A DNA stretch of 32,000 bases, from assembly GCA_050304695.1 (NCBI GenBank), contig JBNLEB010000021.1:72312-104311 (forward strand), given 5' to 3'. Origin of the DNA: Mariprofundaceae bacterium. Its GTDB lineage: Bacteria; Pseudomonadota; Zetaproteobacteria; Mariprofundales; Mariprofundaceae. Positions 4,081 through 32,000 of the stretch are shown here, piece after piece (positions within the stretch are counted from its first letter, which is position 1; every line of letters begins with the position of its first letter). The notes beneath the pieces are model-generated. The model ran no database searches, was not told where the DNA came from, and was given only the letters and a program-made list of their open reading frames with translations. The position numbers and the translations under genes are program-made.

Positions 4081-4162
4081 GAGGTCGAGAGGTGATCCAG
4101 CATCGGCGGATCACGGTGGATAATCATCGTTCACAATATCATGGCCACTGAACTTTGCAACG

Positions 4163-4199
4163 CCGGTTGTACATGTTTTTGCAATTTATGTACAACCGG
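4163..4199. repeat. Perfect 11-bp inverted repeat (ccggttgtaca N15 tgtacaaccgg) in the region between the RTX fragment and the NTase gene; possible operator
   Basis: Read directly: arms at 4163-4173 and 4189-4199, spacer tgtttttgcaattta. It ends 15 nt before the ATG at 4214. Confidence 0.4.
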
Positions 4200-4213
4200 T
4201 CTAATATCCATCC

Positions 4214-5161: not shown

Positions 5162-5229
5162 ACCGTACCGTCGACATCTGCACCCGGCCTGTATCGAGGG
5201 GGCTTTAAACAAAGATAATATGACTTTTA

Positions 5230-5811: not shown

Positions 5812-5878
5812 TTCGTAACCTCCTGAACAGATAACCGGGCAATAGATATAGCTGCTCGCCCATCTGTTGTTCTCCTAT

Positions 5879-5916
5879 ATAAAGCACTTTTTGAGTGATA
5901 AAGCACCTTTTTGGAG
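5879..5916. repeat. Tandem direct repeat, period 19 bp (ATAAAGCAC-TTTTTGAG / ATAAAGCACCTTTTTGGAG), 66-103 bp downstream of the glmS stop
   Basis: Read directly at 5879-5895 and 5898-5916. Confidence 0.6.
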
Positions 5917-5981
5917 TTCAGGGAAGCGAACCCGCCCGGAATTCAGGAGTTTCGAATGAAAAGAATCGCGCGCTTTTCCGG

Positions 5982-7808: not shown

Positions 7809-9205
7809 TACTTATCCTTCTTTGGCCGCTGCCAGTCACGAATATGACGTTGTTCCGGGCGTGCAGAGAGGGTCAGACCTCCCTCACTCACCCGCTTCGT
7901 AATAATGCTGCCTGCGCCGATAGTGGCATCACTGCCCACCTCGACCGGTGCGATCAGTTTGGTATCGGAACCGACAAAGACATCATCGCCGATGATGGTC
8001 TTATGCTTGTTGGCGCCGTCATAGTTGCAGGTGATGGTGCCGGCACCGATGTTGCAGTCGCTGCCCACCTCGGAGTCACCGATATAACTGAGGTGGTTCA
8101 CCTTACTTCCATGCCCTACCACGGCATTCTTGATCTCGACGAAGTTACCGATGTGCACCTCTTCATCGAGCCGCGCACCGGGACGCAACCGCGCAAACGG
8201 TCCGATTTTCGCATTGGAAGCGACACTCGCACTATGGATATGGCTGAAGGCGAAGACATTGACACGATCATCCAGCCACGCATCCACCAGCACAGCGTTG
8301 GGGCCGACCCGGCAGTCGTCTCCAATATGAGTGGAGCCGATCAGATAACATCCTGCCTGAATCACACTATCGACACCGATACTGACACCGGCCTCGATAC
8401 GCACGCTCTCCGGCTTCTCGATGGTGACGCCATTCATCTGCCAGTCGTGGATAATCCGTTTCTGCATCAGTGACTCGACCTCGGAGAGCTGCACTCGATT
8501 GTTCACACCCAGCATCTCATCCGGATCATCCATCACAACGGTCTCGACAGACTTTCCAGCAGCCAGCGCCAGCGGCACGATATCGGGCAGGTAGTACTCG
8601 CCCTGTGCATTGCGATTGCCGATCTTGTGCAGCAGGTCGAAGAGCACATCGTGCTTCACACAATAGATGCCACTGCTGACCTCGCGAATCTCTTTTTGAG
8701 CATCGTCCGCATCCTTCTCCTCAATGATCGCCGTAACCTTGCCCTCGCCATCGCGTACAATTCGGCCATAACCGTGCGAGTTCTCAGGTTCGGCGGTAAG
8801 AACCGTCACCGCTGTATCGAGCTTTCGATGCCGGTCGATCAGAAGTGCCAGAGTTTCCGTTCGCAGCAGAGGTGTATCGCCGCAGACAATCAGCACATCA
8901 CGCACATCGCGAATAACGGTCTCGCACTGCTGCACGGCATGCCCCGTTCCGAGCTGTCTGTCCTGAATCACCCACTCCAGATTTTGAGGCTGGCCGACAT
9001 GTTCCTGCACCTGTGCCGACTCATGCCCGGTCACCAGTGCGATGGCTTTGGGCCGCAACCCCTCAACCGTATGCAGCAGGTAGTCGATCATCGCCCGGCC
9101 AAGCACCGGATGCAGCACCTTCGGCCTGGATGAGCGCATACGTTTGCCCTGACCTGCAGCCAGTACACAAACCTGTAGATCGGGATAGTGAAATTCCTGA
9201 CTCAT
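7808..9205 (-). CDS. glmU: Bifunctional UDP-N-acetylglucosamine diphosphorylase / glucosamine-1-phosphate N-acetyltransferase
   Basis: LAAGQGKRM NTP-transferase motif, then C-terminal left-handed beta-helix hexapeptide repeats. I chose the ATG at 9205 (MSQEF...) with SD GGAGGAG, because the longer ORF start (9244) would run into the atpC terminator hairpin. The stop overlaps the glmS ATG by 1 nt. Confidence 0.95.
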   Translation of the reverse strand: MSQEFHYPDLQVCVLAAGQGKRMRSSRPKVLHPVLGRAMIDYLLHTVEGLRPKAIALVTGHESAQVQEHVGQPQNLEWVIQDRQLGTGHAVQQCETVIRDVRDVLIVCGDTPLLRTETLALLIDRHRKLDTAVTVLTAEPENSHGYGRIVRDGEGKVTAIIEEKDADDAQKEIREVSSGIYCVKHDVLFDLLHKIGNRNAQGEYYLPDIVPLALAAGKSVETVVMDDPDEMLGVNNRVQLSEVESLMQKRIIHDWQMNGVTIEKPESVRIEAGVSIGVDSVIQAGCYLIGSTHIGDDCRVGPNAVLVDAWLDDRVNVFAFSHIHSASVASNAKIGPFARLRPGARLDEEVHIGNFVEIKNAVVGHGSKVNHLSYIGDSEVGSDCNIGAGTITCNYDGANKHKTIIGDDVFVGSDTKLIAPVEVGSDATIGAGSIITKRVSEGGLTLSARPEQRHIRDWQRPKKDK

Positions 9206-9242
9206 CTCTCCTCCATAGATACCGGGACGATGCCTGATACGC

Positions 9243-9269
9243 AAAAAGGTCGCACAATGTGCGACCTTT
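9243..9269 (-). terminator. Rho-independent terminator after atpC
   Basis: Stem aaaggtcgcac / gtgcgaccttt (11 bp; the central pairs probably open to give a larger loop), followed on the minus strand by a run of 5 T. Confidence 0.6.
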
Positions 9270-9318
9270 GCAAAGATTTAAGCGCCGATTAAGTGGCCTC
9301 CGATGATTGAGTAGCCTC

Positions 9319-9737
9319 TTAGTGACCTTTCTTCTTCTTACGAAGCCATGCGAGCCGTGCAGTCATCATGGAGAGTTCCGCTTCAGCTACGGCGATATCA
9401 ACTTCGCCATGCTTACCTTCAACCACTTCCTGTGCCTTGCGCTCGGCAGCCAGTGCAGCCGCTTCATCGATATCGGTTGCACGCTCCGCCGAATCGGCCA
9501 GCACGGTGATCATATCCGGTTGCACTTCCATAAAGCCGCCGGAGACGAACACTTCATCGACCTCTTCAGGCCCTGTCGTGATACGCAGTTCACCCGCAGT
9601 CAGGGCGCAGAGCAGCGGCGTATGCTTCGGCAGGATACCGAGCTCACCGGCTACACCCGGAGCTACGACCATCTCGGCCTCGCCGCGATAGACTTCACGC
9701 TCAGCCGTGGCAACGAGTACTTGAACGGTAGAAGCCA

Positions 9738-9738
<1 letters not shown>
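9319..9738 (-). CDS. atpC: F1 ATP synthase epsilon subunit
   Basis: 139 aa. Sits immediately after atpD with a TAATG 1-nt overlap. Sequence is typical of epsilon (VVAPGVAGELGILPKHTPLL). Confidence 0.93.
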
Positions 9739-11156
<1,418 letters not shown>

Positions 11157-12008
11157 TTAACCTGCAGCTGCAGCACCGGCACAGATCTCTGCCAGCTCCT
11201 GCGTAATCGCTGCCTGGCGTGCCTTGTTGTAGGTAATGCTGAGATCCTTGACGATCTCCTTGGCATTATCCGTTGCAGCCTTCATCGCCACCATTCGGGC
11301 CGACTGCTCGCACGCCTTATTCTCTAACACACCATGGAAAACGATCGACTCCACGTAACGACGCAGCAGTCCATCCATCACCTCTTTACTATCGGGCTCA
11401 TACAGGTAATCCCAATAGCTCTCATGCTTCTTATCATCGGCAATCGGGCATGGAATCAGACGCATGCTCTTCGGTGACTGCGTCATGGTGTTAACGAATT
11501 CACTGTAAACAAGATGGACTTCATCGAGTTCACCGCTCATATATCTGTTCATCGCCAGATCGACCACACCGAGGATGTCGGCAATCTCAGGTGAATCGGG
11601 AACATTCTCGACAGAGCCTGCAATCGTCGCAAAACGTTTCAGGAACGCACCTGCACGACGACCGATGGTGAACACCTCGGTATCGACGCTCTGCTCTTTC
11701 AATACCGCAATCGCCTTCTTCAGCGCATTGGTATTCAGGCCGCCGCAGAGACCCTTATCGGTGGTGATCACGATGATACCCACCTTCTTCACCTCGCGTT
11801 CGGTAACGAACGGATGCTGGTACTCCGGATGCGCCTGCATCAGGTTGGATACCACCTGCTCCAGACCCTCGGCGTAGGCACGGGCGTCCACCACACGATC
11901 CTGGGCCTTGCGCATCTTCGATGCGGCAACCATCTCCATCGCCTTGGTAATCTTACCAGTGTTCTGGATCGCCTTGATCTGACCCCTAATTTCCTTTGCA
12001 GATGCCAC
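11157..12008 (-). CDS. atpG: F1 ATP synthase gamma subunit
   Basis: GTG start at 12008 preceded by AAGGAG gives (M)[35 protein letters not shown], matching the E. coli AtpG N-terminus [34 protein letters not shown]. The longer track ORF (to 12065) overlaps atpA. Confidence 0.93.
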   Translation of the reverse strand: [283 protein letters not shown]

Positions 12009-12033
12009 GTTACGACTCCTTGACCAGGTTGCC

Positions 12034-13575
12034 TTAGTAAGTTCCGGTCGCCTTGAAGTCGGCAATCGCCTTCTTCAGACCTTCGGTTACTTCATCAGTC
12101 AGCTCAGGCTTGGCATTCAGACCGTTCATCAGGCCGGCTTCGGCAGAAGCCAGGTGAGCCAGCAGGCCCTTCTCGAAATCGCGAACCTTCTTCACTTCGA
12201 TATCGTCGAGATCGCCGTTGTTCAGTGCGAAGAGAACGGTTGTCATCTCAGCTACGGACTGCGGAGAGTTCTCATCCTGCTTCAGAATCTCAACACCGCG
12301 CTTACCACGCTCGATCTGCTTGCGGGTCGCCTCATCCAGGTCGGATGCGAACTGTGCGAATGCCGCCAGCTCACGATACTGAGCCAGGTCGAGACGCAGG
12401 CCGCCACCGACCTTCTTCATCGCCTTGGTCTGTGCTGCACCGCCCACACGGGAAACTGACAAGCCAGCGTTGATGGCAGGGCGCTGACCGGCGTTGAACA
12501 GTGAGGTCTCGAGGAAGATCTGACCATCGGTAATAGAGATCACGTTGGTCGGTACGAATGCAGATACGTCGCCTTCCTGAGTCTCGATGATCGGCAGGGA
12601 GGTCAAAGAACCGGTCTGGCCCTTGATCTTGCCGCCGGTGAACTTCTCGACATAGGTCTCATCCACACGCGATGCACGCTCCAGCAGACGGGAGTGCAGG
12701 TAGAATACGTCACCAGGGTACGCTTCACGGCCCGGAGGACGACGCAGGATCAGGGAAACCTGACGGTAGGCCCATGCCTGCTTGGTCAGGTCATCATAAA
12801 CGATCAGCGCGTCTTCACCGCGGTCGCGGAAGTATTCGCCCATGGTGCAGCCGGTGTACGGTGCGATGTACTGCAGTGCCGCAGACTCGGATGCAGAGGC
12901 GGATACGATAATGGTGTTATCCAGTGCGCCGTGCTCTTTCAGGGTACGAACCACGTTGGCAACAGTCGATGCCTTCTGGCCGACAGCCACGTAGACGCAA
13001 GTCACGCCGGTATCTTTCTGGTTGATGATGGTATCGATCGCGATCGCGGTCTTACCGGTCTGGCGGTCACCAATGATCAGCTCACGCTGGCCGCGGCCAA
13101 CAGGAACCATGGAGTCGATCGCCTTGATACCGGTCTGCAGTGGCTGATCCACCGACTTACGCTCGATCACACCGGGTGCGATCTTCTCGACCGGACTGTT
13201 CAGCTCAGCATCGATCGGGCCCTTGCCATCAATCGGCTGACCCAGAGCGTTGACCACGCGACCCTTCAGGCCGGGACCGGTCGGAACCTCGAAAATACGA
13301 CCTGTGCACTTGACCTGATCGCCTTCGCGCAGGTGGGTGAACTCACCGAAGATCACCGCACCGACCGAACCCTCTTCCAGGTTCAGTACCATGCCGAATG
13401 TATCGCCAGGGAACTCCAGCATCTCGCCAGCCATTGCAGCGGAGAGACCGTGGATCAGGGCAACACCGTCACCTACGGAGATCAGACGACCGACATTCGC
13501 GTCGGTAGCACCTGCTTCAAAGCCCTTGATCTGCTCCTTAATGATGGAACTGATTTCAGCGGTATCGAGTTTCAT
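12034..13575 (-). CDS. atpA: F1 ATP synthase alpha subunit
   Basis: 513 aa. Walker A GDRQTGKT; typical alpha-subunit sequence throughout. Confidence 0.98.
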
Positions 13576-16669: not shown

Positions 16670-18076
16670 TTAATAACGGTAGTGGTCAGGCTTATACGGC
16701 CCCTCGACAGGGACCCCGATATAATCCGCCTGCTCCTGCGACAGCTCGGTCAGGTTAATGCCGATCTTGGCCATATGCAGGCGTGCCACCTCTTCATCGA
16801 GCTTCTTCGGCAGGGTGTAGACCTCGTTCTTATACTGGCCGGTCTGCGTGAACAGCTCGATCTGCGCCAGTGTCTGGTTGGTGAAGGAGTTGGACATCAC
16901 GAAGCTCGGATGGCCGGTCGCACAACCGAGATTCACCAGACGTCCTTCGGCCAGCAGTGTGATTCGCTTACCGTCCGGGAAGATGATCTGATCCACCTGC
17001 GGCTTCACATTCTCCCACTCGTATTTCTTCAGAGAGGCAACATCGATCTCGTTGTCGAAGTGGCCGATATTGCAGACGATCGACTGATCCTTCATGGCCG
17101 CCATGTGGTCGTGGGTAATCACATGGTAGTTGCCGGTGGTGGTGACGAAGATATCGCCCAGTGCCGCCGCATCGTCCATATTGACCACGCGGTAACCCTC
17201 CATCGCCGCCTGCAGTGCGCAGATCGGATCGATCTCGGTCACCCATACGGTGGCACCCATACCACGGAACGCCTGCGCACAACCCTTACCCACATCGCCG
17301 TAACCGAGCACGACACAGATCTTACCCGCGATCATCACGTCGGTGGCACGTTTGATACCGTCGAGCAGCGATTCACGGCAGCCGTAGAGGTTATCGAACT
17401 TGGATTTGGTGACCGAGTCGTTGACGTTGATGGCAGGGAACGGCAGATCGCCCTTCTCCTGCATCTGGTAGAGACGGTGCACGCCGGTCGTGGTCTCTTC
17501 AGTCACACCCTTGATCGCCGCTTTGCGCTCGGAGTACCAGGTCGGATTCGTGGCCAGCTTCGCCTTGATGGCGTTGAACAGGGCGACCTCCTCTTCACTA
17601 CCCGGATTGTCGAGCACGGAGATATCCTTCTCCGCCTTGGAACCCAGAATCACCAGCAGGGTGGCATCGCCACCGTCGTCGAGGATCATGTTCGGCGTGC
17701 CGCCGTCATGCCACTCCATGATGCGGTGGGTGTACTCCCAGTAGTCCTCCAGCGTCTCGCCCTTGTAAGCGAAGACCGGCACGCCCTCGGCAGCGATGGC
17801 CGCGGCGGCATGGTCCTGGGTGGAATAGATGTTGCACGAAGCCCAGCGAACCTCGGCACCGAGCGCTGTCAGCGTCTCGATCAGCACGCCGGTCTGGATA
17901 GTCATGTGCAGGGAGCCTGCAATGCGGGCGCCCTTCAAAGGCTGCTCTTTCGCATACTTCTCACGTGTCGCCATCAGGCCCGGCATTTCGGTCTCGGCGA
18001 TGGTCAGCTCTTTGCGACCCCAGGAGACAGTCTCCGGGGACATATCGGCCACTTTATAATCATTGAAATCAGACAT
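16670..18076 (-). CDS. ahcY: Adenosylhomocysteinase
   Basis: DYKVADM...[17 protein letters not shown], the NAD-binding GYGDVGKG, and a C-terminal ...KPDHYRY. I prefer the ATG at 18076 (AGGAG 7 nt upstream) to the ATG at 18082, which has only 1 nt of spacing. Confidence 0.96.
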
Positions 18077-18115
18077 TCTCATACTCCTGTCGTTTGCCTA
18101 AACAGACATAAAAAT

Positions 18116-18193
18116 ATGAGCACCGTTGGATATGTTATTATCGTCGACTGAGCCTGGTTCCGTTTTAATTTAGAACTGCAGTGCTCCTCAGTC
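18116..18193 (-). promoter_or_regulatory. SAH riboswitch (S-adenosylhomocysteine-sensing leader of ahcY)
   Basis: The minus-strand RNA is GACUGAGGAGCACUGCAGUUCUAAAUUAAAACGGAACCAGGCUCAGUCGACGAUAAUAACAUAUCCAACGGUGCUCAU. It matches the remembered consensus blocks GAGGAGCGCUGC / CAGGCUC / AACGGCGCUCA. P1 is CUGAG/CUCAG, P2 is CUG..GUUC/GAAC.CAG, and the pseudoknot is GAGCAC/GUGCUC, with a compensatory G>A / C>U change relative to the consensus. It lies 40 nt upstream of the ahcY ATG. Confidence 0.78.
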
Positions 18194-18243
18194 TGGAAAT
18201 TTATTAGATGTTGAATAAGGCCATCCTGACCTTTTCAACTTAC

Positions 18244-18448: not shown

Positions 18449-19618
18449 CTATACGCCAGCGGCGGCTTTGAGGGCTGCAGCCTTGTCGGTGCGCTCCCAT
18501 GTGAATTCCGGCAACTCACGACCGAAATGCCCGTACGCAGCAGTTTTGCTGTAGATCGGACGCAGCAGATCGAGCTCCTGCACGATCCCTTTCGGACGCA
18601 GATCGAACACTTCACGAACGGCCTCAGCAAGCTTGCCCTCGTCGACCTTGCCGGTGCCGAAGGTATTGATCATCACACTGAGCGGGTGTGCCACACCGAT
18701 GGCGTAAGCCACCTGCACTTCACAGCGATCAGCCAGGCCGGCCGCCACGATATTCTTGGCGACATAACGCATCATATAGCAGGCGGAGCGATCCACCTTC
18801 GTCGGATCTTTACCGGAGAAAGCGCCGCCACCGTGATGACCGAAACCGCCATAGGTATCGACAATGATCTTACGTCCTGTAACACCGCAGTCGCCCACAG
18901 GGCCGCCGATCACGAATCGACCGGTCGGATTGATGTGATATTCGGTGTCTGCATGCAGCAGGCCGGTGCCGCCCAGCACCGGATTGATCACTTCATCCAT
19001 GATCGCTTCGGAGAGCTCTTTATGCTCAATGTCGGGATTGTGCTGGGTGGAGAGTACTACCGCATCGATCGCCACCGGCTTGCTATTCTCATAACGCACC
19101 GTCACCTGTGACTTCGCATCCGGACGCAGGAAGGCAAGCTTGCCGCTCTTGCGCACTTCAGACTGTTTAGCGACCAGTTGATGAGAGAGATGAATCGGCG
19201 TCGGCATCAGCACGTCGGTCTCATTCGAGGCATAGCCGAACATCAACCCCTGGTCGCCTGCGCCCTGATCGAGATCAATACCTTCACCCTCATTCACACC
19301 GGCAGCAATATCCACCGACTGCTTATCGAGCGAGACCAGCACCGCACAGCTCTCCCAGTCGAAACCCATGCTTGAAGAGTTGTAGCCGATCTCCCTGATC
19401 GCACCGCGTACGATATCCTGATAATCGACAACAGCCGAAGTGGTGATCTCACCGGCGATCAGCGCCATGCCTGTAGTCACCATCGTTTCGCAGGCAACGC
19501 GGGCATACCTGTCCTGCTCCAGAATCGCGTCGAGCACGCCATCGGAGATGCGGTCGGCCACCTTATCGGGATGCCCCTCGGAAACTGACTCACTGGTAAA
19601 CACAAAATCACGACTCAT
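18449..19618 (-). CDS. metK: S-adenosylmethionine synthetase
   Basis: 389 aa. [36 protein letters not shown] and the rest of the sequence are classical MetK. Confidence 0.97.
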
Positions 19619-23507: not shown

Positions 23508-26500
23508 ATGAGCGCAGCCACCACCAACACGGCAGTCAAGGCCAAGGCAGAGGAAACCGCGGAAGCAACCGGCGAATACAAGCTGGCTTCCGAGGTCACG
23601 CTGCAGCCTGCATCCGAAGATATCTGGGATAAGAAGTACCGCCTGAAGGATAAAAACGGTAACGCTGTCGATGTCGATATCGAGGCGACCTACGAGCGTG
23701 TTGCCAAGGCGCTGGCTGCTGTCGAGGAGAAGGATAGGCAGGAGTTCTGGTTCAACCGTTTCACCTGGGCGCTGCAGCAGGGTGCCATCCCGGCCGGTCG
23801 CATCATGTCCAACGCCGGTGCCGAAGCGCATAAGCCCGCCACCTCCACCATCAACTGCACCGTATCCGGCTCGGTTCCCGACTCGATGGACGGCATCCTC
23901 TCCATGGTGCGCGAAGCCGGCCTGACGCTGAAAGCAGGCTGCGGTATCGGTTATGAGTTCTCCACCCTGCGTCCGAAGGGCGCTTATGTCTCCGGTGCCG
24001 GTGCCTACACCTCGGGCCCGCTCTCCTTCATGGATATCTTCGACAAGATGTGCTTCACCGTATCTTCGGCAGGCGGTCGTCGCGGCGCACAGATGGGCAC
24101 CTTCGACATCCACCACCCCGACGTCATGGATTTCATCCGCGCCAAGCGTGAGGACGGTCGCCTGCGCCCGTTCAACCTCTCCTGCCTGATCACCAAGGAC
24201 TTCATGGAAGCGGTGAAGGCCGATGCCGACTGGGATCTGATCTTCCCGGCTACCGAGCAGGAGGCCGGGAACAAGGAGGAGCGTATCGTCTGGAAACAGA
24301 TGCCGCACTTTGCAGGTTCGGCCATTCGCAACGACAAAGGTGAGGTCGCCTGCAAGGTCTACAAGACGATCAAGGCTCAACGTTTGTGGGATGTGATCAT
24401 GTCCTCCACCTACGACTACGCCGAGCCGGGCTTCATCCTCATCGATGAGGTCAACGAGAAGAACAACAACTGGTTCTGCGAAGATGTGCGCGCCACCAAC
24501 CCGTGCGTTACTGCCGACACCTGGGTACAGACGTCAAACGGTCCGCGTCAGGTGAGCCATCTGACCGGCACAGGCTTCCGGGCAGTTGTTGACGGCAAGG
24601 CGCATGCCACAGGCGAAGAGGGATTCTTCAAAACAGCACATAAGGATGTGGTTCGCCTGCAAACTCGCGAAGGCCATGCACTTCGCCTGACCGGCGACCA
24701 CCGCGTGCGCAAGGTGACCCGTCTGACACGCTGGTCATGCGACACCGAATGGACAGAGGCGGCAGATCTGAAAGCGGGCGACCGGGTGCTGCTTAATGAC
24801 CACGGAAGCCTTGCATGGGAGGGAGCCCTCAACAGAGATCAGGGCTACCTGCTCGGCCTGCTGGTTGGCGATGGAACGCTGAAAACGGACAAAGCCGTGG
24901 TCTCCGTCTGGGCGAACCGTCTGGTTGCCAATGCGTCCACGGGACAGGGTGGCGACTCCGCATATGCACTCATGCACGAAGCAGAGCAGGCCGCCCGCAC
25001 GCTCCCCCACCGCGCCGACTTTTCGGGTTTCCATGAAGTAGACGGGCGCGGGGAGTGGCGCATGTCGCTTTCGTCACTGCGCGACCTGGCCTTTGAGTTG
25101 GGTATGACACCCGGCAACAAATCCATCACCCCAGCCATGGAGCAGGAGTCGTCCGGATTTTATGAAGGTTTCCTGCGCGGCTTTTACGATGCCGACGGAT
25201 CGGTTCAGGGCACTCAAGCCAAAGGCGTATCGGTACGCCTGGCACAGAGCGACCTCTCCCGCCTGGAGGCGGTACAACGCATGCTGCTTCGTCTGGGCAT
25301 CGCATCCACCCTCTACCGGAATCGTCGCAGCGAGGGCGAATCGCTTCTGCCGGATGGCAAAGGCGGAACGAAGCATTACGCAACAAAGGCTCAACATGAA
25401 CTGGTCATCTCAGGCTCGAACCTGCATCTCTTCAACGAACGGATTGGTTTTGCCGACACGGAGAAGCAGGCGCGGCTGGATCAGCTGCTGGCCGGCTACA
25501 AGCGTCGGCTCAACCGCGAACGGTTTGTCGCCGAGGTCGAATCGATCACAGCTGACGGTCGCGAAGATGTCTTCGATGTACAGGTACCGGGCATCAACAC
25601 CTTCGACGGCAACGGCCTGCATGCCCATAACTGCGGAGAACAGCCGCTGCCGCCATACGGCGCCTGCCTGCTCGGATCGGTTAACCTGACCAAGTTCGTC
25701 CGCGATCCGTTCACCGACAAGGCCCGCTTCGACTGGGATGCCTACCGCGAAGTGGTCTCCATCTTCACCCGCATGCTCGACAATGTAGTCGAGATCAACG
25801 GCCTGCCGCTGGAGAAACAGCGTGATGAGATCATGGGCAAACGTCGCCACGGCATGGGATTCCTGGGCTTAGGCTCAGCCCTGACCATGCTGAGGACTCC
25901 ATACGGTTCACCCGAGTCGCTGGAGTTCACCGATAAGATCGCTTACGAGATGGCACGCACCGGCTTTAAGGCCGGCATCGAACTGGCCGAAGAGAAGGGC
26001 CCTGCACCGATCATGGATCAGGAGTTCGAGATCACCCCTGAACTGATGGCCAAACAGCCGAAGATGGCCGAAGACGGCATCAAGATCGGCGACAGACTGA
26101 AAGGCAAAATCCTCTGGGCCAGGTATTCGAAATACATGCGCCAGTTCGCCACCAGCGGCAACATCGAAGATGCCAAGATGCTCAAGGAGCTGGAGGAGAA
26201 GGGTTGCCGATTCACCCACCACTCGTCCATCGCACCGACCGGCACCATCTCGCTCTCCCTGGCCAACAACGCCTCCAACGGCATCGAGCCGAGCTTTGCG
26301 CATCACTACTCACGCAACGTCATCCGCGAGGGCAAGAAGAGTAAAGAGAAGGTGGATGTATTCTCCTACGAGCTGCTCTCCTACCGTGAAGAGATCAATC
26401 CGGATGCGATGCCGTTCTCGACCGATGAAGCGACCAAACTGCCGAGCTACTTCATCTCTGCCGATGAGGTGACGCCGAAACAGCATGTCGATATTCAGGC

Positions 26501-26825
26501 TGCGGCACAGAAGTGGGTGGACTCATCGATCTCCAAGACCGCCAACGTCCCGACCGACTTCCCGTATGAGGATTTCAAGGACATCTACATGTATGCCTAC
26601 GACAAGGGACTGAAAGGATGCACCACCTTCCGTTTCAACCCCGAAGCGTTCCAGGGCGTACTGGTCAAGGAAGAGGATCTGGCCAACACCACCTACAAGT
26701 TCACCCTGGACGACGGCACGGTGGTTGAGGCCAAGGGCAATGAAGAGATCGAGTACGACGGTGAAATGCATACCGCCGCCAACCTCTTCGATGCACTGAA
26801 AGAGGGTTACTACGGTAAGTTCTGA
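23508..26825 (+). CDS. nrdJa: Class II (adenosylcobalamin-dependent) ribonucleotide reductase, large fragment NrdJa, containing an intein (extein 729 aa)
   Basis: Typical RNR core: SNAGA, CGIGYEFSTLRP, GGRRGAQMG. The active-site TNP-CGEQPLPPYGACLLGSVNL is split by the intein. The C-terminus is ...ANLFDALKEGYYGKF. Confidence 0.93.
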   Translation: MSAATTNTAVKAKAEETAEATGEYKLASEVTLQPASEDIWDKKYRLKDKNGNAVDVDIEATYERVAKALAAVEEKDRQEFWFNRFTWALQQGAIPAGRIMSNAGAEAHKPATSTINCTVSGSVPDSMDGILSMVREAGLTLKAGCGIGYEFSTLRPKGAYVSGAGAYTSGPLSFMDIFDKMCFTVSSAGGRRGAQMGTFDIHHPDVMDFIRAKREDGRLRPFNLSCLITKDFMEAVKADADWDLIFPATEQEAGNKEERIVWKQMPHFAGSAIRNDKGEVACKVYKTIKAQRLWDVIMSSTYDYAEPGFILIDEVNEKNNNWFCEDVRATNPCVTADTWVQTSNGPRQVSHLTGTGFRAVVDGKAHATGEEGFFKTAHKDVVRLQTREGHALRLTGDHRVRKVTRLTRWSCDTEWTEAADLKAGDRVLLNDHGSLAWEGALNRDQGYLLGLLVGDGTLKTDKAVVSVWANRLVANASTGQGGDSAYALMHEAEQAARTLPHRADFSGFHEVDGRGEWRMSLSSLRDLAFELGMTPGNKSITPAMEQESSGFYEGFLRGFYDADGSVQGTQAKGVSVRLAQSDLSRLEAVQRMLLRLGIASTLYRNRRSEGESLLPDGKGGTKHYATKAQHELVISGSNLHLFNERIGFADTEKQARLDQLLAGYKRRLNRERFVAEVESITADGREDVFDVQVPGINTFDGNGLHAHNCGEQPLPPYGACLLGSVNLTKFVRDPFTDKARFDWDAYREVVSIFTRMLDNVVEINGLPLEKQRDEIMGKRRHGMGFLGLGSALTMLRTPYGSPESLEFTDKIAYEMARTGFKAGIELAEEKGPAPIMDQEFEITPELMAKQPKMAEDGIKIGDRLKGKILWARYSKYMRQFATSGNIEDAKMLKELEEKGCRFTHHSSIAPTGTISLSLANNASNGIEPSFAHHYSRNVIREGKKSKEKVDVFSYELLSYREEINPDAMPFSTDEATKLPSYFISADEVTPKQHVDIQAAAQKWVDSSISKTANVPTDFPYEDFKDIYMYAYDKGLKGCTTFRFNPEAFQGVLVKEEDLANTTYKFTLDDGTVVEAKGNEEIEYDGEMHTAANLFDALKEGYYGKF
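24504..25631 (+). mobile_element. Intein (376 aa) with LAGLIDADG homing-endonuclease domain, inserted in nrdJa before the catalytic Cys
   Basis: The sequence reads ...RATNP|CVTADTWVQT...DGNGLHAHN|CGEQPL, and it is in frame (24504 is codon 333). Block A has Cys1; block B is LRLTGDHRV; the LAGLIDADG motifs are GYLLGLLVGDGTL and FLRGFYDADGSV; the C-terminus is VFDVQVPGINTF...HAHN with a +1 Cys. Confidence 0.9.
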
Positions 26826-26974: not shown

Positions 26975-27223
26975 ATGCTTCAGGGCTACAGAGAGATTAC
27001 ATGGCCGGACTTAAGGTTCCCGCCGATTAACCTGTGGGTGATGGCTTCGCTGGCGAACAGCGAGGCATCAGCAAGTTCCGAGGAGCCAGCGACGAGCTCG
27101 GTCGAATCGGATACCCGCATTCACCGGAGGCAGCGCCCGGGTCTGACAAGGACAAACGCGCTGCATAAACATTTACATAGGCGACTGGAGAGCATTCTGG
27201 CCGTCCGTGGAGGAAAGCGATGA
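26975..27223 (+). CDS. Possible small ORF (82 aa) translationally coupled to nrdJb; unknown function
   Basis: Strong SD GAGGAGG 6 nt before the ATG at 26975. The stop overlaps the nrdJb start (ATGA at 27220-27223). The composition is unremarkable, I recognise no motif, and it could be non-coding. Confidence 0.3.
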   Translation: MLQGYREITWPDLRFPPINLWVMASLANSEASASSEEPATSSVESDTRIHRRQRPGLTRTNALHKHLHRRLESILAVRGGKR

Positions 27224-27852
27224 GCATCAAGATCGAGAAGAAGATTACCGGTTACGAAGTGGCCAAGCCGAAGGATGAGCAGGAGAGCAATGTTGCGCAT
27301 ATCGCGCCGCTGCTGGAGCGCGACGATATCCTTGAGGGCAACACCTACAAGATCAAGACGCCGCACTCCGAGCACGCCATGTACATCACCATCAACGATG
27401 TCGTGGTTAATTCAGGCACCCCGGATGCGCATCGTCGTCCGTTCGAGATCTTCATCAACTCCAAGAACATGGAGCACTTCATGTGGATCGTGGCGCTCAC
27501 CCGCGTTATCTCCGCCATCTTCCGCAAAGGCGGCGATGTCAATTTCCTCGTTGAAGAGCTGAAAGCGGTCTTCGATCCGATGGGCGGTTATTACAAGAAG
27601 GGCGGCAAATATATGCCATCCATCGTTGCCGAGATCGGTGAAGTGATCCAGCAGCACCTTGTCTCCATCGGCATGATGGAGGGCAAGCTCAACACCGCCG
27701 AACTGCAGGCCAAACGCAAAGAGGCCGAAGAGAAGCTGGGCAGTGATGCCGTCGCCAAAGGCAACCTCTGCGACAAGTGCGGCGCCATGGCCGTCGTCCG
27801 CCTCGACAACTGCAACTGCTGCCTAGAGTGCGGCGACTCGAAGTGTGGGTAG
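27220..27852 (+). CDS. nrdJb: Class II ribonucleotide reductase small fragment NrdJb (C-terminal TSCPD-type domain plus Cys-rich tail)
   Basis: GNTYKIKTPHSEHAMYITINDVV...RRPFEIFINSKNMEHFMWIVALTRVISAIFRKGG follows the pattern of the C-terminal domain of long NrdJ proteins (G.TYK.KT....YVTIN....P.E.F.......A..RLIS.ALR.G). The tail is CDKCG...CNCCLECGDSKCG. SD GGAGGA is present. Confidence 0.8.
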   Translation: MSIKIEKKITGYEVAKPKDEQESNVAHIAPLLERDDILEGNTYKIKTPHSEHAMYITINDVVVNSGTPDAHRRPFEIFINSKNMEHFMWIVALTRVISAIFRKGGDVNFLVEELKAVFDPMGGYYKKGGKYMPSIVAEIGEVIQQHLVSIGMMEGKLNTAELQAKRKEAEEKLGSDAVAKGNLCDKCGAMAVVRLDNCNCCLECGDSKCG

Positions 27853-27905: not shown

Positions 27906-27947
27906 AAAAAGGCTGCTATCTATTGTGATAGCAGCCTTCTTTTTTTG
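27906..27947. terminator. Bidirectional rho-independent terminator between nrdJb and the accessory operon
   Basis: aaaaa-aggctgctatc-tattgt-gatagcagcct-tcttttttt. The stem is 11 bp and perfect (27910-27920 / 27927-27937), with T-runs on both strands. Confidence 0.75.
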
Positions 27948-27994: not shown

Positions 27995-28882
27995 CTAACT
28001 GCTGAAGGACTGGTACTCAATGGTTTTTGCTACCAAGTCACCCTCGATAATACCGCCTTTGTTTTCATTCACTGCTCGCCAAACACGAAACCCTTCTAAA
28101 ATCGCACGCTCCCATTCATTCATTGAACAGCGACTAACTTCTAATCGAGCAGTCATGTCTTTAATGATCCTCAATAACTCGTACGCAACGGTATCAACTC
28201 CATCGTAATATGAATAAGCCTTAGCATGATCAAAGACTAATGCAGAAATCGCCTCATCAATTACCGCTGCCCGACCTCCATCTTCAACCTCATCAACTTT
28301 AAGATCGCTTTTTCTCTTTCGATTGAAAAACCTTCTACAAATCGGCGACCAACCCAGTATGGCCAGGTATGCTAAGTGGAAAACGTCATGGAATCGGTAA
28401 CCATCATCTTCATACGAGTTATCTGTTAATTGATCACCAAACGAGCCTTCATCCCATTCGACATGAACTTTCATGCCTCCTTCAACCATTACCTCTCGAA
28501 TTTCAACTCGAAACTTTCTTGGAATCTGCTCTGCAATTGGAAAGTCTTCATCAAACAATTTTTCCCCAAGAGCATCTGGATGGGTTTTACTTAACCATCG
28601 ATCGGTTGTCTTTGCCAAATTCTGTTCAGCAATTTCTGAAAGATTTAACTTTTGGCGAGATGCAATATTTGCAACATACCAAAGAATATCTCCCAATTCT
28701 TCTGTGATTTTCTCACTAAAAAGATAGTAAGCATCGCCATCTCGAAGATGTTTTTTAAACTCGGTTAGTAGCGAGCCAGCCTCGCCAGTCAAACCAAGCA
28801 GTGAAATCATTAGCCCGCGCTCGTCATCAGGCATTGTCTTGTCAGTTTTTGTTGCTTCTTGCTGAAAATAGTTAAATTCCAT
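27995..28882 (-). CDS. MazG-like all-alpha NTP pyrophosphohydrolase domain (about 100 aa) fused to a roughly 190-aa C-terminal domain of unknown function
   Basis: ATG at 28882 with GGAGG 5 nt upstream; the track ORF starts 4 codons earlier at a TTG. LLGLTGEAGSLLTEFKK...EKITEELGDILWYVANIASRQKLNLSEI fits the MazG/HisE-type motif pair (E..GE..E ... EE.GD.LWY). The C-terminal part (DNSYEDDGYRFHDVFHLAYLAILGWSP...) is not recognised. Confidence 0.65.
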   Translation of the reverse strand: MEFNYFQQEATKTDKTMPDDERGLMISLLGLTGEAGSLLTEFKKHLRDGDAYYLFSEKITEELGDILWYVANIASRQKLNLSEIAEQNLAKTTDRWLSKTHPDALGEKLFDEDFPIAEQIPRKFRVEIREVMVEGGMKVHVEWDEGSFGDQLTDNSYEDDGYRFHDVFHLAYLAILGWSPICRRFFNRKRKSDLKVDEVEDGGRAAVIDEAISALVFDHAKAYSYYDGVDTVAYELLRIIKDMTARLEVSRCSMNEWERAILEGFRVWRAVNENKGGIIEGDLVAKTIEYQSFSS

Positions 28883-28902
28883 AACCCCTCCCAAGGCCCC
28901 TA

Positions 28903-29958
28903 TTATTTTGCACCTAATTCCTTTTCAATTTTAGAATTAATCCCCCATTTTGGTGGATACCAATATTCAATTGGCGAGCAATTCATCCGAAATTTCTGTT
29001 TAATTTTTTTCCGTCCAGAAATCCCAGATATTTCAGGATGAACTACTCGCGAGTATTTATCCACTTCACAAAAAAGGTTTTGTGCATCTATAAGCTGAAG
29101 AGGACGCCCCCAAAGGGTTTGAAAATCTAAACCTAAACGCTCGAACTCCTCATTTTGCCTATCAGCCATAACTTTAATGATATCCGCTTCGTTTAAACCG
29201 CCCAATGAACTAAAACACTTCCTGATCCCATCTCGGGCTCCTGGTCCCGGAACAGTAAATTCCATCTCACTAAAATCCGTCAAATTACTGTAGTTTATAT
29301 CTGTAATGTATTGATATGCTAAAAAATCCCCAATTAAAGGATATGACCTAAACAGCTTGAAACCTTCATACATGCTCTTTGCTTCAACTATTCGAGATGG
29401 TAAATCGTCTTCCATCATCATCACTATAAGCATCAGATGAGCTTGGTGTTTCCTAGCAACATGAAAGTCTTTAGAGCCAGATGCCATCATGTATGCCCCT
29501 GAATATATACTCCTCCCCTTTGCCATAGTTTTCGATAATACTTTGTCATACTTCTTTTGATTGAATTCCGAATAGCGAAGCTCTCCAAATTCATTCTTTA
29601 AAAGCTCCCATGTTTCAATCTTATTGAATAATTTGAATAAAATCGTGCGGAAAAACACTTCTTCAGGCGATTGCTCACCTTTATAGATAACATGTTTAAT
29701 CAAGTACTGGCTGACTCTGTCAGATGCCCTATAAGCATTGGTAAATTTATGCTCAGTTAAAACCGGGTCATCAGTCCAAGGGAGCATCTCATTTGCATAC
29801 CGCCTAAAAAAAACTGCCTGCCGTTCCGCAGCAAACCGCCAATACGTATCAAACACAACTGTGGGCTTCGCTGGTGAAATTGAACTAAAGATAAACGGAG
29901 CCTTTGGTTTTGCCTCCACCGCATTATCTTTTTCCCATAAAATTTTTTGTTTCCTCAT
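28903..29958 (-). CDS. Helical protein resembling the thymidine-hypermodification family (aGPT-Pplase / 5-hmdU DNA kinase helical-domain type; database name 'DNA base hypermodification protein'); no P-loop
   Basis: 351 aa. LPWTDDPVLTEHKFTNAYRASDRVSQYLI matches a motif I remember from this family (PWT.DPIL....F.N..R..DRV[ST]..I). Further blocks are GDFLAYQYITDINYS, GPGARDGIRKCF and LIDAQNLFCEVDKYSR. No GxxxxGK[ST] is present. ATGA overlap with the upstream gene. The assignment rests on memory of the family motif, not on a search. Confidence 0.45.
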   Translation of the reverse strand: MRKQKILWEKDNAVEAKPKAPFIFSSISPAKPTVVFDTYWRFAAERQAVFFRRYANEMLPWTDDPVLTEHKFTNAYRASDRVSQYLIKHVIYKGEQSPEEVFFRTILFKLFNKIETWELLKNEFGELRYSEFNQKKYDKVLSKTMAKGRSIYSGAYMMASGSKDFHVARKHQAHLMLIVMMMEDDLPSRIVEAKSMYEGFKLFRSYPLIGDFLAYQYITDINYSNLTDFSEMEFTVPGPGARDGIRKCFSSLGGLNEADIIKVMADRQNEEFERLGLDFQTLWGRPLQLIDAQNLFCEVDKYSRVVHPEISGISGRKKIKQKFRMNCSPIEYWYPPKWGINSKIEKELGAK

Positions 29959-30752
29959 ATCTCCCTGGCTTCTTTAGCATTAATATATTCACTGATATCG
30001 GTTGCAAGCCCACTCAACTGCTTGATCGAACGATCTCGTTTTGCAACTGACGCAATACAGGTTACTTGTTCCAGTTTTAGCCCCATATAATGAGCCATAA
30101 ATTGGCCTAAATTGCATAACCCAAGGTAATTTCCGTAAGCTTTTTCAAATTGATATTGCATTGCATAATATCCGGTAACACACAACCCATTCGTGCCCAC
30201 TGGAGTAAAGCTCACCTGATGCAAACATGGAAACCCTAATATAGGTGCATGCGAATGATCCAACGCCGGATCAAAAACGGTTGCTAGAAGGGCACTTCTT
30301 CTATGGTTCTTATGGTATTTATAGGTATCAATCACATGCCGCAATTGGTTGATGCCACCTTCTTTTTCATTTTGCGAACGGAATGATGTTAGCCGTTGAA
30401 AATATGTTCCTGATTTATTTGCTGCAGGCTGCGCTTTTCTCACTCTAGGCCAAATGTTATTAAAGCGTGCAAACATATGTTCACCATCATCATTAATTGA
30501 TTTGTTCCATAGCGATTCAGGAAAAATGGTATGTGAAACTTCACTACAGCTCCGCTTGCCAACTTTTCGAAGCTCATCATCAAGCCTATTCCTTATGAAC
30601 GAATCCTCAACAGCATTTCCTTCTTCAAAATCCCTTATCGTAATAACTGCCGGAGTCAATTCTTCCATTCTTGGCTCCATCATTGCCAGTAATGTCTCCG
30701 CCCAAGCCATGGAGAGATTCTCATGTGTTGTAGTGAAAGCTACTTTCGACAT
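29955..30752 (-). CDS. Thymidylate synthase-fold protein (ThyA / pyrimidine hydroxymethylase-like), divergent
   Basis: I chose the ATG at 30752 (MSKVAFTTTHENLS...) with SD AAGAGGAAG. The longer track ORF overlaps the ImmA gene. NHRRSALLATVFDPALDHSHAPILGFPCLHQVSF aligns with E. coli ThyA [29 protein letters not shown], so the RR pair and the catalytic Cys are kept. NYLGLCNLGQFMAHYMG aligns with [20 protein letters not shown], but the ThyA QRS.D motif reads AMQYQFEKAYG. Confidence 0.5.
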   Translation of the reverse strand: MSKVAFTTTHENLSMAWAETLLAMMEPRMEELTPAVITIRDFEEGNAVEDSFIRNRLDDELRKVGKRSCSEVSHTIFPESLWNKSINDDGEHMFARFNNIWPRVRKAQPAANKSGTYFQRLTSFRSQNEKEGGINQLRHVIDTYKYHKNHRRSALLATVFDPALDHSHAPILGFPCLHQVSFTPVGTNGLCVTGYYAMQYQFEKAYGNYLGLCNLGQFMAHYMGLKLEQVTCIASVAKRDRSIKQLSGLATDISEYINAKEAREI

Positions 30753-30753
30753 A

Positions 30754-31614
30754 TTACACTTCCTCTTGAAATCTGAATTTTGCTCGCCCTGCAAACCCTT
30801 TACGTGAAACACGGATAAATGCTGACCATCCAGAGGACCTATCTTCAATCCGCCCGATTCCAGGTGTTATCGCTTGAACAACAGACTTATTGTCATACTG
30901 TTCTACAAGCTCTATGTGTGGGCACTCAATTTGGATGTTTGGAGGCAATACACAGTAGTTTGATGTTTCAACATCAATAGCACGGCCACTCCAAGCTTGG
31001 CTGGCTACGATTAAATCCTCCACACACTGCCTACCAAGCAAATTCGAACGTATCTGCCGCGGTGACTTTTTCAGAAATTTGCTCGCTTGACTGCCTGAGA
31101 TAATCCTTAGTGAATACTGCATATGAGTAATTAATGTTGAGTAACCAACACCAAAAAAAGTTGCCACTTCATAAACAACTTCAGATGTACATGACATTGG
31201 ATTAGTGCCACGCAGTTTAAAAGCGTGAATTACAGCCGTTTTAGGCATTAACAAAGCGCTTGCAAAACAATCTGCAGTAAATTCATCAGGTTCAAATTTT
31301 TGCTGGTCCTTTCGCTGATTGACCAACTCATCAAATTTTTCACCATGCCCAAACATATGATGACCTAACTCATGCGCACACGTAAAAGCCTGCCGCCCTT
31401 TCGGACGTAACGAGGAAACTATTATTGTTGGTCGATCACCTAATAGATATATCCCTTCCATAGATGGTATATCAGCTAATCGTAGCTCTACTTCCAATCT
31501 ATCAACCAAATCAAAAACGCAAACAGGCTCAACAGGTGAAAGCCCTAAACCATTTCGTACCTTAAGTGCTTTGGTGATCGCCGCCATGGCCAATGACCTT
31601 CTACTGAGGGTCAT
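30754..31614 (-). CDS. ImmA/IrrE-family zinc metallopeptidase (Peptidase_M78/DUF955) with a roughly 150-aa C-terminal extension
   Basis: HExxH is present in FTCAHELGHHMFGH. The gene sits directly after, and overlaps by 14 nt, an XRE HTH gene, which is the canonical pairing. SD GAAGG precedes the ATG at 31614. Confidence 0.8.
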   Translation of the reverse strand: MTLSRRSLAMAAITKALKVRNGLGLSPVEPVCVFDLVDRLEVELRLADIPSMEGIYLLGDRPTIIVSSLRPKGRQAFTCAHELGHHMFGHGEKFDELVNQRKDQQKFEPDEFTADCFASALLMPKTAVIHAFKLRGTNPMSCTSEVVYEVATFFGVGYSTLITHMQYSLRIISGSQASKFLKKSPRQIRSNLLGRQCVEDLIVASQAWSGRAIDVETSNYCVLPPNIQIECPHIELVEQYDNKSVVQAITPGIGRIEDRSSGWSAFIRVSRKGFAGRAKFRFQEEV

Positions 31615-31954
31615 TCTTACCTTCTGTTTTCCTCAACATGCTGACAATCGACATGAGACGATCAAGATCTTCGTCTTTCATAGCGCTCAACCTTCTCGCT
31701 GCCATCAATAGTTTATCGTCGCTTGCATCCAAGGCTTCTTCATTTTCTGAAGTCAACCAAGCAACACTGACTCCATACAACTCAGCAAAAGTTGATAACT
31801 CTTCGGCCGAGACTCGTCTTCGTCCCGCCTCAATTTCGGAAACAGTTGGACGATGAATTTTCATTAGCTTTGCGACTTGCCCCTGACTCAACCCAGCCTC
31901 TTCTCTGGCTGATCGGAGCCTGGCAGCAAGTATCGCTCTTTTATTTTCCTGCAT
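31601..31954 (-). CDS. XRE-family helix-turn-helix transcriptional regulator
   Basis: LRSAREEAGLSQGQVAKLMKIHRPTVSEIEAGRRRVSAEELSTFAELYGVSVAWL is a textbook HTH_3 (Cro/C1) domain. 117 aa. Confidence 0.85.
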   Translation of the reverse strand: MQENKRAILAARLRSAREEAGLSQGQVAKLMKIHRPTVSEIEAGRRRVSAEELSTFAELYGVSVAWLTSENEEALDASDDKLLMAARRLSAMKDEDLDRLMSIVSMLRKTEGKNDPQ

Positions 31955-32000
31955 TTTTTAAATACCCACAAAGTAGAGATGTTATTTCATCAATTGTGAG

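Follow-up and report, generated by a model that had tools for sequence, protein, structure and literature searches.

A six-gene, low-GC cassette of a Mariprofundaceae bacterium with predicted pyrimidine-nucleotide and DNA-modification enzymes behind a CapH/CapP-like switch

The stretch of DNA analyzed here, called the window, comprises 32,000 nucleotides (nt) of a Mariprofundaceae bacterium (contig JBNLEB010000021.1, positions 72,312 to 104,311). At its right-hand end is a cassette of minus-strand genes coding for a small protein resembling acyl carrier proteins (ACP-like), an XRE-family repressor, an M78 metallopeptidase, a divergent protein with a predicted thymidylate-synthase fold (TS-like), an HMUDK_hel protein and a MazG/MazG_C fusion. 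The cassette is a self-contained, horizontally transferred and translationally coupled six-gene unit. We lean slightly toward reading it as an inducible defence cassette of the modular family of DS-4, an anti-phage system of Escherichia coli, acting through modification of pyrimidine nucleotides or of DNA; its targets are most likely phage or mobile elements. Three features appear to be undescribed in the searchable literature: the ACP-like gene in first place, the conserved operator, and how tightly the XRE, M78 and TS-like genes are linked. The features of the cassette are, from its promoter-proximal end:

31941..32000, minus strand: 3′ end (last 19 codons and stop) of the ACP-like gene, first of six in the operon; 97-101 amino acids (aa), the rest lying beyond the window
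31601..31954, minus strand: XRE-family repressor, CapH/DdrO-like, 117 aa (HTH_31, HTH_3, PADLOC capH, PDB DdrOC)
30754..31614, minus strand: M78 zinc metallopeptidase, IrrE/CapP/ImmA-like, 286 aa (Peptidase_M78, PADLOC capP, PDB)
29955..30752, minus strand: divergent protein of predicted thymidylate-synthase (TS) fold, TS-like, 265 aa (AlphaFold2 and Foldseek; sub-threshold by sequence)
28903..29958, minus strand: HMUDK_hel protein, 351 aa, aGPT-Pplase clade-1-like (PF18723, AlphaFold2, BFVD)
27995..28882, minus strand: MazG (residues ~1-105) fused to MazG_C (~108-292) (PF03819 and PF18722)
27906..27947, both strands: bidirectional intrinsic terminator, common to the cassette and the convergent TSCPD gene (hairpin scan, RNA folding)

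An earlier note on this DNA had described a five-gene AT-rich operon. Its five minus-strand open reading frames (ORFs) are present at their coordinates in the ORF list with translations, the motifs that it quoted all occur in these translations, and chance ORFs are ruled out by the strong homologs of every one of the five. The junctions, the terminator and the drop in GC content (0.412 in 27995-32000 vs. 0.566 in 6001-27900) stand as well. The number of genes is six, the ACP-like gene having been missed: its ORF ends at 31941, with a 14-nt overlap with the start of the XRE gene. The XRE and M78 genes also overlap by 14 nt (ATG of M78 at 31614, stop of XRE ending at 31601). One nucleotide separates the M78 stop TAA (30756-30754) from the TS-like ATG at 30752, the TS-like and HMUDK_hel genes join in an ATGA overlap (29958-29955), and a 20-nt spacer, TAGGGGCCTTGGGAGGGGTT, with GGAGG, lies 5′ of the MazG/MazG_C ATG at 28882. 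In the terminator, a 12-bp stem (27909-27938) has A/T runs on either side (scan expectation 0.2), with an RNA folding energy of -23.6 kcal/mol (z = -7.9).

The sequence past position 32000 was read from identical NCBI contigs of metagenome-assembled genomes (L004, L005 and L006; GCA_050305955.1, GCA_050303675.1), found via the 100% identity of their protein to the TS-like protein of the window. In L004, a low-GC island of 4.4 kb (~8400-12780) contains precisely the six cassette genes, with the terminator 27906-27947 as its right-hand edge. The earlier note had also considered an integrative element continuing past 32000; that possibility is not supported, since only one small gene and a promoter follow, and then host-GC genes with no integrase. 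In L004-L006, no integrase, tRNA or phage structural gene lies within 10 kb of the cassette, and no att-like flanking repeats were found at the island edges. Phages show no DNA similarity to the window locus, and a scan of IMG/VR gave no close relative of the bacterial cassette clade.

The XRE protein matches HTH_31 (6.5e-17) and HTH_3 (8.9e-16) in Pfam and DdrOC in the PDB (1.8e-5). Its match to the PADLOC capH profile (4.6e-14) is nearly full-length (residues 4-110 of 117 on profile positions 2-101 of 103), which gives it the make-up of CapH, a helix-turn-helix (HTH) repressor with a C-terminal dimerisation domain. The M78 protein matches Peptidase_M78 (1.1e-14) and PADLOC capP (3.4e-18), with the HExxH motif at H81-E82-H85. 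Its best PDB matches are an IrrE ortholog (8slm, 4.7e-4), CapP (7t5t) and IrrE (3dte), all of ~290-300 aa; the length is 286 aa vs. 291 aa for CapP, and every sequence match is confined to the peptidase domain. On these profile matches, the pair is of the DdrO/IrrE and CapH/CapP type. In CapP/CapH, a signal activates cleavage of the repressor (10.1101/2022.04.27.489752, 10.64898/2026.05.16.725639).

The last 19 codons of the ACP-like ORF read LTIDEITSLLCGYLKNAGK, followed by the stop, and most related loci have a small homologous ORF in this place. In an alignment of 22 ACP-like sequences, Ser44 is invariant and Asp43 occurs in at least 90% ("GFDSL"). The family profile matches 124 PDB sequences; among the 60 listed, 59 are acyl carrier proteins (best 2ehs, E 7e-6), and the invariant Ser aligns on the phosphopantetheine-attachment Ser of these carrier proteins. 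Pfam PP-binding matches 11 of the 22 members (E<=0.1, best 2.2e-6), and the window organism's own copy reaches E 0.028 and 15.1 bits vs. a cutoff of 20.8. No phosphopantetheinyl transferase gene is present near the cassette.

Upstream of the ACP-like ORF, outside the window, a promoter is predicted in L004 (TTGACA-17 nt-AAGAAT). The predicted -10 element sits inside a perfect palindrome, GTAAGAA-T-TTCTTAC, and a further GGTAAGA half-site follows; the candidate XRE operator stretch is GTAAGAATTTCTTAC. This promoter/operator occupies L004 8456-8504, equivalent to window ~32249-32297, and is placed likewise at 30 other loci. In 983 kb of related loci, GTAAG-N5-CTTAC has 31 exact occurrences vs. 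~1 expected; among 42 loci with an XRE gene, 27 have it at 311-392 nt upstream of the XRE start. The operator palindrome GTAAGA-N3-TCTTAC overlaps a TAAGAT -10 element ~17 nt from TTGACA, with the consensus TTGAC(A)-~17-19-tGGTAAGATwwTCTTAC-~4-GTAAGGA(G), in which the third half-site, GTAAG(G/A), overlaps the Shine-Dalgarno of the small ACP-like ORF. Promoter, operator and genes move as one unit, because the same arrangement is found again in Acidobacteriota, Chloroflexota, Thermodesulfobacteriota, Myxococcota, Cyanobacteria and others.

The TS-like protein is divergent in sequence, scoring 13.8 bits vs. the threshold of 24.3 bits for Pfam PF00303, and 1.9e-8, under that model's cutoff, for TIGR03283. 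Since the alignment of sequence profiles by hhalign is weak, its membership of the thymidylate-synthase fold was established through the AlphaFold2 model (pLDDT 92.3, pTM 0.91) and Foldseek. Against the PDB, the model has 395 matches at E<=1e-3, all in the TS superfamily (probability 1.0, TM 0.5-0.6), including ThyA, the CMP hydroxymethylase MilA and a phage dCMP hydroxylase. The ThyA fold proposed earlier is thus missed at the Pfam threshold and recovered in the predicted structure. In the family alignment (32 sequences), the invariant residues are P175-C176 of the FPC motif, R151, S153 and N208, while H150 and R152 are kept in at least 90%. In the weak hhalign alignment, the conserved residues fall on the nucleophile of TS, on its Arg-Arg motif and on the Asn that specifies uracil (Asn208), so that, as aligned, the protein carries the nucleophilic Cys and the Arg-Arg phosphate-binding motif of TS. 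TS-like proteins form a discrete family (1317 clusters at 50% identity, E<=1e-3), with members of ~250-290 aa.

The HMUDK_hel protein is recognized by PF18723 with E 3.3e-114 (381 bits vs. a cutoff of 25). It has >8000 homologs, with 60-73% identity across phyla, and 22 plasmid records carry a homolog; most of the homologs, at ~560 aa, also contain a P-loop kinase of Thymidylate_kin type in the same chain, and this kinase is missing from the window copy. In NCBI the protein goes under the name "putative DNA base hypermodification protein". Searching the PDB by sequence gave nothing useful for it, and phmmer finds no match to gp46, an amino-acid:DNA transferase of phage PaMx11. With the AlphaFold2 model (pLDDT 85.6), matches in BFVD are to the SP10 5-hydroxymethyl-deoxyuridine (5-hmdU) DNA kinase (E 9e-16), to aGPT-Pplase clade 1 (1e-9) and to "helical domain" proteins of PhiW-14, RSL1 and Nodularia; over the helical domains of phage 5-hmdU DNA kinases, E ranges from 9e-16 to 3e-7, with TM up to 0.78. 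Amino-acid:DNA transferases are more distant in BFVD (probability 0.97-1.0, E 6e-3 to 4e-2). Foldseek against the PDB returned only sub-threshold matches (E >= 0.17), to helix-hairpin-helix (HhH) DNA glycosylases and to PaMx11 gp46 (E 0.27, TM 0.32). In gp46, Cys247 is catalytic and Asp175 contacts the nucleoside (PMC11472151); in a multiple alignment, the family-invariant Cys297 and Asp220 of the window protein align with these two residues. From sequence and model together, HMUDK_hel is placed as a sister clade of the amino-acid:DNA transferases (aGPT-Pplase clade 2, PUGT) and not as a member of them. Because the catalytic Cys and Asp of gp46 are conserved and structural matches are found, it is probably no passive helical domain but an enzyme by which a pyrimidine in DNA is flipped out and attacked. 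A homolog in the well-studied cluster of phage PaMx11, gp50 (L070 4974-5861), has gp49, the 5-hmdU DNA kinase, on one side and gp51, the TS homolog, on the other, and keeps the Cys-Glu and the Asp of the gp46 transferase; it is given no role in the published work covered here.

In the last gene, the MazG domain is found by PF03819 (2.2e-6, 28.2 bits vs. a cutoff of 22) and MazG_C by PF18722 (2.9e-75). Pfam profile searches agree in this way with the HTH_3, Peptidase_M78, HMUDK_hel and MazG assignments of the earlier note. The protein has >7000 homologs, the MazG acidic residues E34, E61, E62 and D65 are invariant in the family alignment, and among PHROGs it matches phrog_229, "MazG-like pyrophosphatase" (8.5e-37). 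Against the PDB, the N-terminal part of the family profile matches MazG-like entries and DCTPP1; the C-terminal part, MazG_C, has no match there. DefensePredictor calls MazG_C "a predicted nucleotide kinase" (PMC13092281). One variant tail (L073 7888-10107) has an APH/TCAD9 kinase-like protein and, after it, MazG_C as a protein of its own without MazG domain; it follows that MazG_C can function when separate from MazG.

About 65 loci were compared, 63 of them, from many phyla, obtained in one scan of a genome collection anchored on HMUDK_hel; they were annotated by tblastn (1e-4) with reference proteins from the window, L002 and DS-4. The counts below use the 52 loci with full flanks, chosen as close HMUDK_hel relatives, and the frequencies hold for that clade only:

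XRE and M78: 35 of 52 loci
TS-like, 265 aa: 39 of 52
XRE, M78 and TS-like together: 34 of 52
MazG_C tail: 31 of 52
Hydroxymethylase-type TS tail, ~340 aa: 24 of 52
Both tails (MazG_C and TS): 5 of 52
Neither tail: 2 of 52
P-loop kinase fused to HMUDK_hel: 28 of 52 (22 of 24 with the TS tail, 11 of 31 with MazG_C)
TIR and Nmad2: 12 of 52

The family thus follows a modular formula, [ACP-like-XRE-M78-TS-like]-HMUDK_hel(±kinase)-[variable pyrimidine-nucleotide enzyme(s)]±[TIR-Nmad2]. The ~340-aa TS tail shares 40% identity with PaMx11 gp51 and has the CMP hydroxymethylase MilA as its best PDB match (6e-26 vs. ~1e-9 for ThyA), which on sequence places it in the hydroxymethylase clade. Where the TS-like gene served as anchor, the loci have the same front end (ACP-like-XRE-M78-TS-like) with other tails: in one, a DCD-family protein is combined with MazG/MazG_C, and in another an APH/TCAD9 kinase-like protein with MazG_C alone; the DCD-family (dCTP-deaminase-like) variant is at L072 8503-9387. 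These loci adjoin transposases, an integrase or an Eco57I-type methyltransferase, and a tyrosine recombinase stands beside the cassette in L001 and L073. The family is spread over Acidobacteriota, Chloroflexota, Planctomycetota, Bacteroidota, Cyanobacteria, Myxococcota, Proteobacteria and plasmids. An effector based on pool-and-DNA chemistry is supported because the alternative tails are all pyrimidine-nucleotide enzymes (hydroxymethylase, DCD, kinases, MazG).

A distant relative links the family to a phenotype. DS-4 ("NTTI"), from E. coli, was cloned and validated as anti-phage in plaque assays (DeWeirdt, Mahoney & Laub, Science 2026; PMC13092281). It consists of a thymidylate synthase, an adenylate kinase, an HMUDK_hel protein annotated as putatively hypermodifying DNA bases, TIR and Nmad2, and the paper reports no mechanism (PMC13092281). 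Both the comparative data and this validation agree with the earlier proposal, in which a protease/repressor switch controls a thymidine-modification toolkit of phage type in a bacterial chromosome. TIR and Nmad2 are absent from the window and from L004. Since the window cassette is the simplest form, without either gene, its nucleotide/DNA enzymes must be the effectors, and it offers a good entry point to the chemistry.

The following pathway is tentative, and doubtful in its full sequence of steps. At rest, XRE would bind GTAAGA-N3-TCTTAC and silence the entire operon including its own gene. A signal of DNA damage or infection (single-stranded DNA, by analogy with CapP) would activate M78, leading to cleavage of the repressor. 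MazG would then hydrolyse pyrimidine dNTPs to dNMPs, and the TS-fold enzyme would modify dUMP at C5, the invariant Asn208 favouring uracil. MazG_C may stand in for the P-loop kinase of the relatives, and HMUDK_hel would flip out and act on the 5-substituted uracil in replicating DNA. The thymidine branch would thereby be depleted or rewritten and replicating DNA, mainly that of the phage, chemically altered, so that propagation is blocked or the infection aborted.

Several observations weigh against a defence cassette working in this way. The TS-like family profile matches no solved TS among PDB sequences, which makes the protein very divergent; with hydroxymethylase-type TS the hhalign alignment is colinear and weak (probability 11%), and in it the equivalents of Arg166 and Asp169 are not kept. 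The TS-like gene co-travels with the switch and not with the tail genes, and could therefore be a sensor and not a biosynthetic enzyme. Bacteroidota variants (MazG/MazG_C-HMUDK_hel-TIR-Nmad2) exist without any TS, so self-made 5-hydroxymethyl-uracil is no universal requirement. For the kinase role of MazG_C, the evidence consists of the published prediction and the complementary distribution. The phenotype comes from DS-4 and not from the architecture of the window; TIR and Nmad2, which the window lacks, may be the real effectors of DS-4, and in one row of the DS-4 data the titre of lambda is down ~9-fold with small plaques (PMC13092281). The neighbouring proteins of the cassette (HipA-like, SIR2_2, others) have zero PADLOC matches; there is no recognizable defence island, and that argument is therefore unavailable at this locus. 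The switch pair itself differs from canonical capH/capP, which stand upstream of the cargo operon on the opposite strand (Lau et al.), whereas the window pair is co-directional with the cargo, inside the operon and translationally coupled.

Other explanations account for parts of these data. HMUDK_hel (with MazG_C or a kinase) could be a reader and not a writer, turning the 5-hydroxymethyl-uracil-type bases of hypermodified phages into lethal lesions while MazG destroys a non-canonical dNTP (such as 5-hm-dUTP), as a counter to ViI-, M6- or SP10-like phages. We hold this to be unlikely. MazG enzymes are classic house-cleaners of non-canonical NTPs, HMUDK_hel is structurally nearest to the SP10 5-hmdU DNA kinase and to related phage proteins with 5-hmdU in DNA as their substrate, its fold is HhH-glycosylase-like, and variants without TS gene exist. 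However, in 24 of the 52 relatives a hydroxymethylase-type TS is present and would be a source of the modified nucleotide, the TS-fold protein is left without a role, and lambda, affected in the row of DS-4 data cited above, has unmodified DNA. The cassette could also serve the DNA-damage response instead of immunity, as a mobile IrrE/DdrO-type regulon unit with pool sanitation by MazG, thymidylate synthesis by the TS-fold protein and glycosylase-like repair by HMUDK_hel. The best PDB matches of the switch are indeed IrrE orthologs and DdrO, those of the HMUDK_hel fold are DNA glycosylases, and oxidative-stress genes for superoxide dismutase (SOD), hemerythrins and glutaredoxin are neighbours. 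This is very unlikely, HMUDK_hel being far nearer to phage hypermodification proteins (E 1e-9 to 9e-16) than to glycosylases (E >= 0.17); the family associates with TIR plus Nmad2, restriction-modification (R-M) genes and mobile elements, DS-4 is a validated defence, and a compact low-GC cassette with swappable tails is typical of defence systems.

More improbable still is a hypermodification of self DNA, in which host thymidines would be shielded epigenetically from nucleases and XRE/M78 would merely be a controller, like the C-proteins of R-M systems. The toolkit is homologous to the genes with which phages modify their own DNA, and the NCBI name of the core protein says as much. Against this, a cognate partner for restriction or as effector is absent from the cassette, tight repression through a cleavable repressor argues against constitutive genome-wide modification, and clade-2 amino-acid:DNA transferase, pyridoxal-phosphate (PLP) and radical S-adenosylmethionine (SAM) finishing enzymes are missing. 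Pairs of XRE and M78 are classic immunity modules of prophages and of integrative and conjugative elements, and the cassette could be the regulatory end and cargo of such an element, an ordinary ImmR/ImmA module with moron genes. Genes for XRE and M78 do match PHROGs, and the tyrosine recombinases of L001 and L073 fit as well. We give this the least credence of all: the low-GC island ends with the six genes, the searches for element and phage hallmarks, in IMG/VR and within 10 kb of the cassette, were negative, and the same cassette with its conserved promoter/operator recurs in unrelated contexts across phyla.

Returning to the inducible defence cassette, a bolder version of it is conceivable, although we regard it as rather doubtful: phage anti-restriction chemistry would serve as a bacterial immune effector, in which damage-triggered rewriting of the thymidine branch and hypermodification make the genomes of invaders non-functional. 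The route may run from C5-modified uracil through phosphorylation to attack by HMUDK_hel with its Cys297. At its boldest, the idea is that the ACP-like protein with its invariant Ser may give the nucleophile or a carried group, resulting in a protein- or cofactor-DNA adduct. Alternatively, within the same tentative proposal, ACP-like, XRE, M78 and TS-like proteins would make up a nucleotide-sensing switch; if true, nucleotide-sensing derepression would be a new type of input for regulators of the IrrE/CapP class. With its conserved operator and ACP-like first gene, the cassette offers a new variant of the IrrE/CapP switch. The family is huge (the homologs of HMUDK_hel and MazG/MazG_C counted above), yet a phenotype is available only in one distant relative, DS-4. 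Once worked out, the chemistry would also give a function to the uncharacterised phage paralogs (PaMx11 gp50, aGPT-Pplase clade 1) in well-studied hypermodification clusters.

The cassette lies directly downstream of a nucleotide-metabolism locus, with the terminator in common; there, the gene for the large subunit of ribonucleotide reductase (23508-26825, plus strand) is split by an intein with a LAGLIDADG homing-endonuclease domain (Pfam) and is followed by the TSCPD-domain gene (27220-27852, plus strand). An S-adenosylhomocysteine (SAH) riboswitch (18111-18195, minus strand; Rfam RF01057, 44.4 bits) precedes the gene for S-adenosylhomocysteine hydrolase (16670-18082), near the SAM synthetase gene at 18449-19618; this is a housekeeping locus. 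Two other patches of lower GC (0.47-0.49) may be acquired genes too: 4001-6000, with the gene of an NTP_transf_8 (PF12281) nucleotidyltransferase (4214-5161) and a 193-aa ORF of no assigned family (5230-5811), and 1-2000, with an LprI-like gene and, just past the patch, an RTX-repeat gene (2518-4080). Beyond the window and just outside the island, a 221-nt direct repeat (94% identity; L004 6383-6603 and 8141-8361) duplicates the 3′ end of a hemerythrin gene and brackets a HipA_C kinase gene with an N-terminal winged HTH and host-like GC (0.6). It looks like the scar of a separate insertion beside the cassette; the HipA-like protein between the repeats has no PADLOC match. Nor has a SIR2_2 (PF13289) protein (L004 2144-3025), ~5 kb from the cassette amid SOD, hemerythrin and glutaredoxin genes.

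Among known systems, dNTP-depletion defences include dCTP deaminase and dGTPase systems. Nucleotide hydrolysis by MazG could likewise starve phage replication, and one relative has a DCD-family tail; the differences are the lack of a PADLOC match and MazG itself, which has another fold and is always accompanied by HMUDK_hel. With CapH/CapP, and with DdrO/IrrE and ImmR/ImmA, the cassette shares an XRE HTH repressor and a ~290-aa M78 peptidase with HExxH, which are its best PADLOC and PDB matches, and presumably the logic of signal-activated repressor cleavage. It differs in the ACP-like gene that precedes the pair and in the TS-like gene that comes next in 34 of 35 loci. The cassette would be an autoregulated single transcription unit, and the placement of the pair inside the operon is a real architectural difference from capH/capP.

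The phage clusters for thymidine hypermodification (PaMx11 gp46-gp51, SP10 gp186, ViI, M6, PhiW-14; Lee et al. 2018/2021; PMC8989533, PMC11472151) have the HMUDK_hel fold and family in common with the cassette, as well as the Cys/Asp of the gp46 transferase. The order kinase-HMUDK_hel-TS of PaMx11 (gp49-gp50-gp51) is mirrored in the bacterial relatives, and the MazG plus MazG_C architecture is found in phages also (phrog_229). In contrast to these clusters, the window cassette is bacterial, chromosomal and under a repressor, and it has no clade-2 transferase, no PLP, radical-SAM or flavin adenine dinucleotide (FAD) finishing enzymes and no P-loop kinase. As the earlier note had seen, a kinase P-loop is missing, with a Thymidylate_kin domain in no window protein. 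The HMUDK_hel protein of the window is 25-35% identical to the phage proteins, whereas identity within the bacterial clade is 60-73% across phyla.

The closest comparison is with DS-4. Its HMUDK_hel protein (DS-4C) is 28% identical to that of the window (E 1e-31), with the Cys-Glu motif in common, a TS-family enzyme is present in both, and the tail genes of DS-4, TIR and Nmad2, occur among relatives of the window cassette, in the 12 loci counted above. DS-4 differs in having a hydroxymethylase-type TS, a separate dNMP/adenylate kinase, TIR and Nmad2, none of which is in the window, and in having no XRE/M78 switch, ACP-like gene, 265-aa TS-like or MazG/MazG_C. By BLASTP, the TS-like protein of the window has no similarity to DS-4A; the DS-4A-type TS is not in the window and is the tail of 24 of the 52 relatives. 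Systems of aGPT-Pplase, MazG and MazG-C are listed as predicted and unvalidated by DefensePredictor (PMC13092281), which also cites a 2015 bioinformatic study as having predicted such domains in defence without validation (PMC13092281). A literature search for HMUDK plus MazG, MazG plus ImmA plus TIR, and "DNA base hypermodification protein" gave nothing beyond the DefensePredictor work. The three cargo proteins (TS-like, HMUDK_hel, MazG/MazG_C) have zero matches in PADLOC v2, and the exact architecture is uncatalogued there; to this extent, the earlier description as an undescribed system without a name holds. It was overstated for the family, and the cassette is not categorically new, because its components and their association had been predicted before, the Pfam families PF18722 and PF18723 exist, and its relative DS-4 is a validated defence system.

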